From: Eledone cirrhosa
Lineage: Eukaryota
DNA: 64,000 nt
Assembly (NCBI GenBank): GCA_964016885.1
Contig: OZ024744.1
Location: forward strand, 88,412,001 to 88,476,000
Direction of reading: 5' to 3'
Below the pieces are notes generated by a model. It worked only from the letters and a program-made list of their open reading frames with translations. It did no database searches and had not been told where the DNA came from. The stretch's first letter is position 1. Each line of letters begins with the position of its first letter. The position numbers and the translations under genes were made by a program. Below, one piece after another: positions 7,417 to 61,997 of the stretch.

Positions 7417-7548
7417 TACGAATTAACGTGGAAAAGACAGTTAAACATGTTGTTGAAATGTGTTCCACTCTGTCAATTCATCGATATGTCCAGCTCCTGG
7501 GTGTGTTGTTAGTCCTCCGAGAAACTGGAATCATATGTATATATATAC

Positions 7549-7629
<81 letters not shown>

Positions 7630-7637
<8 letters not shown>

Positions 7638-8772
7638 TAACAGATTAAAGTTTAAGCAAAGAATCGCTGCTTTCACCCTTAACGGGATCTTCTGAAACTA
7701 ACAAAGTCAATCTGTAAACGCAGAAGTGGATATTTCAAAAAACGTTGCAACTGGAGGAAGACAGGAAGACGATACTTTGGTTCGTGGAAACGTTCGCTGG
7801 CAAAGAACGGGAAAAAACGAATATAATACGTCATTAATAGGAGCGGTGTATTGTATTTATTTACTTTGTTCCTAACTCTGTAACGAAGATTCATTCGGTC
7901 TCCTAGTTAGAATTTTAGTCTACGACTTCTGCTATACCATTTACATGGTTTTGTCTTTGCGTGCTATTGTTCTCCACGCTCCACATATGACGTATTTTCT
8001 TCGTTTTTTTCGTTCATTGCCAGAGAACGTCTCTAAGAACCACCTAAGAGAACATTAGTCTACGACCTCTTTTATACCACAAACGTGGTTCTGTCTTTGC
8101 GCGTAATTGTTTTTCACCGCTCCTATTAATGACGTATTATATTCGTTTTTTCCCGTTCTTTGCCAGCGAACGTTTCCACGAACCAAAGTATCGTCTTCCT
8201 GTCTTCCTCCGGTTGCAACGTTTTTTGAAATATCCACTTCTGCGTTTACAGATTGACTTTGTTAGATTCAGAAGATCCCGTTAAGGGTGAAAGCAGCGAT
8301 TCTTTGCTTAAACTTTAATCTGTTATTTTAATAAATATTTGCTCTACGGTTCTTATATATTTGATATATATTTATCCTTATCGAGCCCTCTTTGGATTTT
8401 AGTCTTCAAATTTATTATTATTACTATATATACTAGATGTTTGTCGCATTTAATCAGATTCTCTCGCTGATGATGCCCAGGATTATCTGTTACAAACACA
8501 CTCAGGGCGAAACAGATTATCCCTAATCTGTCCGAGAGATATAATTGTTATTGAGGCGGTTTGTATAATATAATTTTATTTTATTTTATCATTCTGTCTG
8601 CTTCATGGTTAAATATTTCAAACAAATGTGGTCTTTCAACCCTCGTAATATTAGACACACGATTTACTGTGTTTCTTACTACATATATATTATTATTATT
8701 ATAATGCTCAGTATTTATACTTGGAGCTTATTGATTACAGGGTTTCAGTAAGAGTTATTAACTCTAACTTTC

Positions 8773-8775
<3 letters not shown>
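7630..8775 (+). mobile_element. HHR-bearing element with an inverted 5' duplication, (TA)n on both sides
   Basis: 7630-7848 and 8115-8333 are inverted repeats. Internal diverged tandem duplication ~7915-8025/8056-8165. HHR at 8460. A fragment recurs at ~61853-61967. Confidence 0.8.
8460..8539 (+). ncRNA. canonical type I hammerhead ribozyme
   Basis: TCTCTCG-CTGATGA-tGCCC..GGGC-GAAA-CAGATTA(tccc)TAATCTG-TC-CGAGAGA. 7-bp stem I, 7-bp stem III, GUC site after 8532. Confidence 0.92.
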
Positions 8776-8812
<37 letters not shown>

Positions 8813-10143: not shown

Positions 10144-10289
10144 TTTTGAGTTTATGTTGGTTGTATACCAACCCCTCAATATGCAGGCTGGAGCACTCGA
10201 CGGGGTGCGCAGGTTGGTTTGGTTACTCCGGAGTAGTGTAAAATAAAGTTAAATAAAAGTCAAATGATTAAAATTTAGCTTCGTTTATT

Positions 10290-10344
10290 ACTGCTATATA
10301 TATTTCAGTGACAGCCATCTTTAGCTGTGACCTCTTCAGGCAGT
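10290..10344 (-). ncRNA. type I hammerhead ribozyme motif
   Basis: Minus strand: ACTGC-CTGAAGA-GGtcACAGC..GCTGTcaCT-GAAA-TATATA-TA-GCAGT. Confidence 0.8.
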
Positions 10345-10570
10345 TTGAATTAGCATGGTAAAGACAAGTACATATGTTGTTTAGGTGTATAATATTGTCA
10401 ACACTCTGATATGCCCAGTTCCTTGTTGGGTTGTTAATTCACTGAGGAACTGGATATGACTCCAGTTCCTCAGTGAATTAACAACCCAACAAGGAATTGG
10501 GCATATCAGAGTATTGACAATATTATACACCTAAACAACATATGTACTTCTCTATACCATACTAATTCAA

Positions 10571-10625
10571 ACTGCCTGAAGAGGTCACAGCCAAAGATGG
10601 CTGTCACTGAAATATATATAGCAGT
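10571..10625 (+). ncRNA. type I hammerhead ribozyme motif
   Basis: ACTGC-CTGAAGA-GGtcACAGCC..GGCTGTcaCT-GAAA-TATATA-TA-GCAGT. Confidence 0.8.
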
Positions 10626-10692
10626 AATAAACGAAGCTAAATTTTAATGATTTGACTTTTATTTAACTTTATTTTATATATATATATATATA

Positions 10693-10950
10693 TTATTATT
10701 ATTATGTAATAAACAACATAAGGCAATTATTCCATTTACCAGTGGTTTCTTAAAAGCAAAAGGTTTTGTTTCAATCCTCAGAATGAAAAAATCATGGTTT
10801 GTTTATTGAATTTGGATTTTTAAAATCCAAATTCAATAAACAAACCATGATTTTTTCATTCTGAGGATTGAAAGCAAAACCTTTTGCTTTTAAGAAACCA
10901 CTGGTAAATGGAATAATTGCCTTATGTTGTTTATTACATAATAATAATAA
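10693..10950. mobile_element. near-perfect ~260-bp palindrome with one HHR per arm
   Basis: Centred near 10821 (GGATTTT-T-AAAATCC). HHRs at 10731-10787 (-) and 10855-10912 (+). Confidence 0.88.
10855..10912 (+). ncRNA. type I hammerhead ribozyme motif
   Basis: TTCATT-CTGAGGA-TTGAAAGCAAAA(cc)TTTTGCTTTTAA-GAAA-CCACTGG-TA-AATGGA. GUA site. Confidence 0.8.
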
Positions 10951-29500: not shown

Positions 29501-29945
29501 GAAATTTCGTTTCATTTTTTCCATTTATCGTTTTCGGGGCGCCCGGCCGATTAACTCACTCGTTATGCAAATTAGGCTGCTCAGCCGTTAATATGCATAA
29601 GGAAAGTATATACTTTCAGACATTCAATCATCTGGCAGGAAGGTATACGGTGCTGACGATAGCTAATAAGCTTGAAACTAGTACATCGTTCCTTTGCCAG
29701 TGTTGAACAACGATGGTTGCTAAACACTGTACGGCTTAATTCGAGATGTTTGTTTAAAAACAAACCGAACATTATAATAAATGTTCGGTAAATCCATACG
29801 TACATATATATATATATGCATGTATGTATATATATACATACTACTGTACGTCTGTATACATATATGTATGTGCGTATACATACTTATATGTAAGTAACAG
29901 CCGTACTAAGAGTGAGAAAGGAAATTTCGTTTCATTTTTTCCATT
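29501..29945 (+). mobile_element. 420-nt HHR-bearing unit with 25-bp terminal direct repeat (retrozyme/pLTR-like)
   Basis: GAAATTTCGTTTCATTTTTTCCATT at 29501 and 29921. HHR at 29647. Sister locus at 52488-53240. Confidence 0.82.
29647..29689 (+). ncRNA. minimal type I hammerhead ribozyme motif
   Basis: ACGGTG-CTGACGA-tAGCT(aata)AGCTt-GAAA-CTAG-TA-CATCGT. Confidence 0.82.
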
Positions 29946-61845: not shown

Positions 61846-61958
61846 GTATGTAACGTTTTTCGAAATATTTACTTCTGCGTTCACAGATTGACTTTTTTTA
61901 GTTTCAGAATATCCCGTTAAGTGTGAAAGCAGCGATTCTTTACTTAAACTTTAATCTG

Positions 61959-61997
<39 letters not shown>

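Follow-up and report, generated by a model that had tools for sequence, protein, structure and literature searches.

Introduction

Animal non-LTR retrozymes are described as non-coding, low-GC units that carry a single type I hammerhead and occur, next to autonomous Penelope-like elements (PLEs), either singly or in short tandem arrays (Cervera and de la Pena 2020, PMC7229834; Li, Clavereau and Pollet 2026), and they are now argued to derive from PLEs (bioRxiv 10.64898/2026.07.22.740005). Invertebrate retrozymes are given as 170-400 nt (PMC7229834); the 2026 preprint has a range of 51-972 bp, and of nine Xenopus dimers predicted there only one showed cleavage in vitro (bioRxiv 10.64898/2026.07.22.740005). 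One member of the class, from a mussel, lacks the usual contacts between loop 1 and loop 2 (PMC7229834 / Li et al. 2026).

Among PLEs, the Hydra clade is portrayed as having a C-terminal endonuclease, characteristic motifs, insertion into (TA)n, a partial tandem with an inverted copy, a tail and a length generally <3 kb; canonical hammerheads, with the core CUGA(A/C)GA, are called universal in it (Craig et al. 2021, PMC8557442). In that account PLEs typically have a 5'-truncated copy in inverted orientation and a tail at just one of their ends; it states the role of the hammerhead in PLEs as unclear and suggests that hammerheads may be passengers (PMC8557442). Here we compare with these systems a locus of Eledone cirrhosa lying in a 64,000-nt stretch of contig OZ024744.1; this whole stretch is called the window below, and coordinates refer to it.

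Results

Two element ends in one (TA)n site

The 3.0-Gb genome around the window is rich in microsatellites. We hold with good confidence that region 7630-8775 consists of two retroelement ends, one of a family A and one of a family B, which abut in a TA microsatellite. The features are:

7533-7632, no strand: (TA)n target microsatellite, left flank
7632-7848, minus strand: 5' arm of family A, inverted and without tail, duplicating 8115-8331 (repeat and contig data)
7640-7715, minus strand: mirror copy of the family A U4A hammerhead motif, core CAGAAGA, stem I intact, putative cut after 7654
7847-8424, plus strand: 5'-truncated 3' end (pLTR, and tail at 8339-8424) of family A, a putative autonomous Hydra-clade PLE
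7909-8042 and 8049-8185, plus strand: internal duplication in family A, 79%
8248-8323, plus strand: Hydra-type hammerhead motif of family A, U4A core, putative cut after 8309
8425-8432, no strand: (TA)4 junction from the family A end to the family B truncation point
8431-8776, plus strand: 5'-truncated monomer of family B, unit positions 134-476, a non-LTR retrozyme or non-autonomous PLE
8460-8539, plus strand: type I hammerhead motif of family B, extra U8474, GUC site, predicted cut after 8532
8776-8810, no strand: (TA)n right flank

The original prediction had placed the hammerhead downstream of a 219-bp inverted repeat with near-identical arms. The arms are real: 7625-7848 and 8115-8338 are 224 nt each, lie 266 nt apart and differ at three positions, one in the TA flank and two in 217 nt of element sequence. 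They belong, however, to family A, whose whole part at the locus is 7632-8424, and not to the element that carries the hammerhead. This assignment follows from where genome matches start, what flanks other copies, and contig depth. A genome search with 8334-8776 gave 1,883 candidates, and among the best 40, which were scored, the other family B loci all start matching at or after 8430; the search with 7632-8432 (2,145 candidates, best 40 scored) returned a separate family, A. Nineteen other A copies are followed by TA repeats (17), the next A unit (1) or other DNA (1) and never by family B, and none of 29 other B copies has a family A end directly 5' of it. Summed contig depth on A is ∼100-fold that on B in the contigs of a public run. 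Loose contig ends run into TA repeats at 8338, the family A mirror point, and at 8432, and no contig among those listed bridges the A-B junction, which for a listing of this scope is uninformative. It should be noted that the kind of these contigs is unrecorded, hence they are uninformative on RNA ends or expression. Part of family A is also present, at low depth, in two further organisms. The two families, their boundaries and copy counts, the tandem and inverted anatomy and the ORF of family A are established here.

Family B and its hammerhead

The natural full unit of family B is 476 nt and non-coding. Besides partial tandems, head-to-tail arrays exist at L108 (468-nt period, three intact cores) and L109 (472 nt), and inverted copies end short of the tail, at about unit position 395-409. 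Neither an ORF belonging to B nor an autonomous element with its 3' end was seen in the fetched loci; the latter result counts against our main explanation, given below. As a short, low-GC, non-coding type I hammerhead unit found as monomers and in tandem next to autonomous PLEs, family B is, judged by its sequence, a non-LTR retrozyme or non-autonomous PLE, a previously published class, while literature searches returned no published description of family B itself. Compared with retrozymes as the cited reports portray them, it differs in its 476-nt unit (longer than the invertebrate examples but inside the range of the preprint), long 7-bp stem III, 26-nt loop II, possible loop II pseudoknot, extra U after A9, and targeting of (TA)n, where its inverted copies have no tail. 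Two or more hammerhead units in a row, the sign of an 'active' retrozyme in Li et al., occur at L108, whereas the window locus holds a truncated monomer. With one hammerhead this copy cannot yield RNA of unit length; the sole substrate for its cut after 8532 would be a plus-strand transcript that reads through the locus. The copy is probably passive.

The motif was originally called a textbook intact hammerhead, and most of that description stands. Stem I has 7 bp (8460-66/8533-39), the core CUGAUGA lies at 8467-73 and GAAA at 8509-12, stem II is a G-C closed helix of 4 bp (8475-78/8505-08), stem III has 7 bp plus A15.1-U16.1, and the site is GUC; the type I pattern (CUGANGA / GAAA / UH, three helices, helix I open) is present. 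What departs from the textbook is the unpaired U8474 between A9 and G10.1, an extra U reported as a conserved PLE-hammerhead trait (PMC4209133). In comparison with the minimal metazoan PLE hammerheads of that report (Cervera and de la Pena 2014), the B motif has a stable 7-bp helix III and a 7-bp helix I and could fold as a monomer, which brings it closer to the fungal and protist PLE variants. A distal helix, 8450-54/8550-54, is compatible with the alignment and is a candidate only. Rating this motif the best candidate in the window was fair; it has the sole 7-bp stem III among the 10 canonical-core motifs found by scan. Rfam hammerhead models do not match it at the gathering score nor at E ≤ 10. 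The motif is no chance occurrence: the pattern of its core and stem II has 212 exact matches in the genome versus none for the reversed control, and an equally good fold is reached by 6 among 200 shuffles (z = –2.27).

Predicted folding is less clear-cut. The hammerhead fold (–21.6 kcal/mol) is practically isoenergetic with a rod-like alternative (–21.5) and takes ∼43% of the predicted ensemble, which we count against the main explanation, and a construct covering 8430-8570 is predicted to misfold, with a stem I probability of about 0.04. Cleavage by the B hammerhead is plausible, and we would expect, if only just, that a short hammerhead construct cleaves measurably.

Nineteen of the 29 nearest B siblings, chosen by whole-unit similarity, have an intact motif. 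Deviations from the majority letter in these copies number 3/348 in the core, 16/1032 in the stems, 44/754 in loop II and 187/5675 in the rest, and sites with at least 15% of a minor letter 0/12, 0/36, 3/26 and 11/200, respectively; the contrast between core and rest has a Fisher P-value of 0.026, although the copies are related and hence not independent. A wider alignment of 48 B hammerheads consists of the window copy and 47 of 60 stretches (second copies of a locus, L026 and L071 being left out), with 21 rows coming from pattern-selected loci. In it 98.5% of helix cells are paired, there is no compensatory double change, and the covariation score does not exceed that of shuffles; two changes recur in paired columns (10 and 15 of 48 rows), both keeping a U-G pair. 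A candidate 5-bp pseudoknot from loop II (8482-86) to 8541-45, a possible tertiary contact of helices I and II, is 97.9% paired, with one-sided changes only. In some siblings the stem III loop is inverted or deleted (subfamilies L052, L068, L073, L074, L078, L080 and L108; L021, L024 and L029), which is consistent with hairpin-mediated template switching. Among the 92 matches from the genome search, no partial one starts at the predicted cut site.

In our main explanation, the B hammerhead would likely cut tandem transcripts into unit-length RNAs, to be copied afterwards into fresh TA sites by an enzyme of Hydra type. The family would be mobilised in trans, its source elements being tandem arrays such as L108, and selection on the hammerhead would act in those arrays. 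The lack of any double change, the relatedness of the copies, the fact that the A-B chimera described below is a single case, the cleavage of only one in nine Xenopus dimers and a unit longer than those of invertebrate retrozymes all count against this explanation. A passenger role is a less likely alternative, under which B spreads by its PLE-like ends and the motif, as a monomer, is for the most part misfolded and does not cut. Such a role would agree with the isoenergetic rod fold, with the lack of a covariation signal, with a stem III that varies among siblings up to inversion or deletion of its loop, with the success of family A despite its variant core, and with the failure of eight of nine retrozymes in vitro in the published Xenopus set (bioRxiv 10.64898/2026.07.22.740005). 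It is harder to reconcile with the distribution of polymorphic sites, which occur in loop II and the flank and not in the core and stems, or with the retention of a U-G pair by both recurrent changes in paired columns.

Age of the insertions and relation between the families

Both copies at the locus look young. The A arms have 1 private letter in 217 each, and rare letters number 5 in 582 for A (against 41 copies) and 1 in 343 for B (against 33 copies); the B copy is 93-98% identical to its dispersed siblings. Arm identity of A is 99.1%, versus 92.3-99.4% in 13 other A inversions (four mismatched rows dropped). The original prediction had read a young insertion from the near-identity of the arms; few private letters are indeed present, but the arms date family A and not the hammerhead-bearing B.

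The families appear to be linked. A GGCTC-hairpin-GAGC motif opens both A and B, whose first bases agree in 13 of 14 letters. The score of this match equals the best of 100 shuffles, so that position, not score, carries the point, and the motif is also visible by eye in several published Hydra sequences. At another locus (L136, G000:C4:38177500-38186000) the ORF and 3' UTR of A are joined to a B tandem at a shared word. Recurrent A-B chimeras were considered and rejected: of three pattern matches one is real and two are point variants of A. We infer that family B derives from Hydra elements, is non-autonomous and is mobilised in trans.

The chimera bears on a rather unlikely alternative, a single composite insertion, in which one event of reverse transcription began with B RNA as template, switched to A RNA at its 3' end and finally inverted. 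The arms would in that case date the hammerhead copy as well. Only (TA)4 separates the complete A end from B, private divergence is similar in the two parts (5/582 and 1/343), and L136 demonstrates that an A-B template-switch chimera is known. However, (TA)n is the target of both families and TA flanks remain around either, which means that two successive insertions would produce an identical junction; PLEs tend to insert beside existing PLE copies (PMC6765202); and the junction of the window is repeated at none of the 19 A and 29 B loci. That the host has recruited this one ribozyme for a regulatory function here is hardly credible, since the intact motif is one of 212 pattern matches and lies in a young insertion closely resembling dispersed siblings and nothing locus-specific speaks in its favour. 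On the evidence above we remain fairly sure of the account as a whole, namely a Hydra PLE end and a truncated retrozyme-like B monomer side by side.

Family A and its variant hammerhead motif

In longer A copies the same sequence flanks an ORF, and the repeat period is 3.26 kb, somewhat above the length typical of the Hydra clade. The ORF of L096 runs for 645 residues stop to stop and continues as a frameshifted piece of 121 residues. Read by eye, these pieces contain RWR (RWK-like), DKT, CxCX5C, CxxC and CxH and no CCHH, and motif reading points to an endonuclease of GIY-YIG type at the C-terminus; a Pfam search of the pieces returned nothing relevant. (TA)n targeting, a pLTR partial tandem, an inverted 5' copy and a tail are present as in the published clade. 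Family A can accordingly be classed as an autonomous Hydra-clade PLE, a placement made from motifs read by eye, while the canonical hammerhead expected in the pLTR is replaced by a U4A form. A second, older family A stub lies at 61849-61974; it is ∼90% identical, its motif has decayed further and it ends in TA repeats.

Each arm of the inverted repeat holds a Hydra-type hammerhead motif with the core CAGAAGA, which the original prediction missed. It has a 5-bp stem I with a 9-bp distal helix, U-U followed by a 3-bp stem II, GAAA, a 4-bp stem III and a CUU site. In the plus-strand copy C3 is 8269, A4 8270 and GAAA 8289-92, the distal helix is 8248-56/8315-23, and a private mismatch at 8266 affects stem I. 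The layout equals that of the published Hydra-1_aJap, Hydra-2_aJap and Hydra-1_cRog (PMC8557442), in which a U before GAAA stands opposite a U after the core; U17 is present in two of the three. The core itself departs from the CUGA(A/C)GA of the clade.

A 30-mer of the A motif matches the genome 18,902 times with A at position 4, versus 684 times with another letter. A CUGA subfamily of A was rejected, as 13 of 13 fetched T-type loci are fold-back junctions, sitting at a 7-nt near-palindrome that overlaps the core. When stem I is required, 66 copies with a non-A letter at position 4 split into T 25, C 21 and G 20, as under neutral mutation; with no CUGA subfamily, this indicates that U4A is ancestral to extant family A. 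Loci L081-L095 reveal a fold-back inversion hot spot exactly at the variant core, implying several hundred insertions, and the fold-back junction can recreate a CUGA core yet loses stem I.

The hammerhead fold of the A motif is predicted to lie 2.1 kcal/mol above the minimum, with a stem I probability <0.1. Non-CpG variability in 27 copies is 31/1971 in the motif, 261/9094 in the upstream flank and 22/2064 in the downstream tail, i.e. the motif is less variable than the former and no less variable than the latter. In published work, single changes in the CUGA turn gave low activity in a deep mutational scan (PMC9901934), a viroid variant with U4C can still sustain infection although its activity in vitro is weak, and U10.1-U11.1 can be accommodated (both PMC3088659). 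Given the published mutagenesis, the unfavourable predicted fold and conservation no better than that of the tail, the A hammerhead is most likely weak or dead. That it still cleaves, and would be a new natural core variant breaking the CUGA uridine-turn rule, we consider improbable. A natural U4A PLE hammerhead was not found in the literature searches or in the Craig et al. supplement; one may already be in print.

Other hammerhead motifs

Several further motifs lie in the window. Those at 2754 (+) and 7099 (+) are minimal hammerheads with a palindromic stem III, of a type that in L112 adjoins the ORF of a different Hydra element, which has ∼47% identity to family A. Two inverted pairs of minimal hammerheads, at 10239-10676 (motifs 10576 + and 10339 –) and at 10861 (+) / 10781 (–), are typical fold-back PLE stubs. 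Canonical cores also occur at 29653 (+), 58006 (–) and 44450 (–); the first represents a family, found in L100 and L114 too, whose stem II has U-U at its base, and the last may be due to chance. Loci L116-L135 represent a second Hydra family, a large one in which open frames of about 830 residues are numerous. In a scan of 20 loci, several of them truncated, no canonical hammerhead was found on the strand of the element upstream of the ORF.

Discussion

Apart from the features noted above, the hammerhead of family B is an ordinary member of a published class, and the only surprising element of the locus is the U4A motif in the inverted arms. It bears on whether PLEs need ribozymes. Here such states can be compared as they occur in nature and inside a single clade: family A has U4A, the second Hydra family yielded no canonical motif upstream of the ORF, a third family has a minimal canonical motif close by, and the non-coding family B has a canonical core. 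If the A motif is dead, it would show that an endonuclease-bearing PLE can dominate a genome although its own ribozyme no longer works, and can at the same time mobilise a retrozyme whose ribozyme does.
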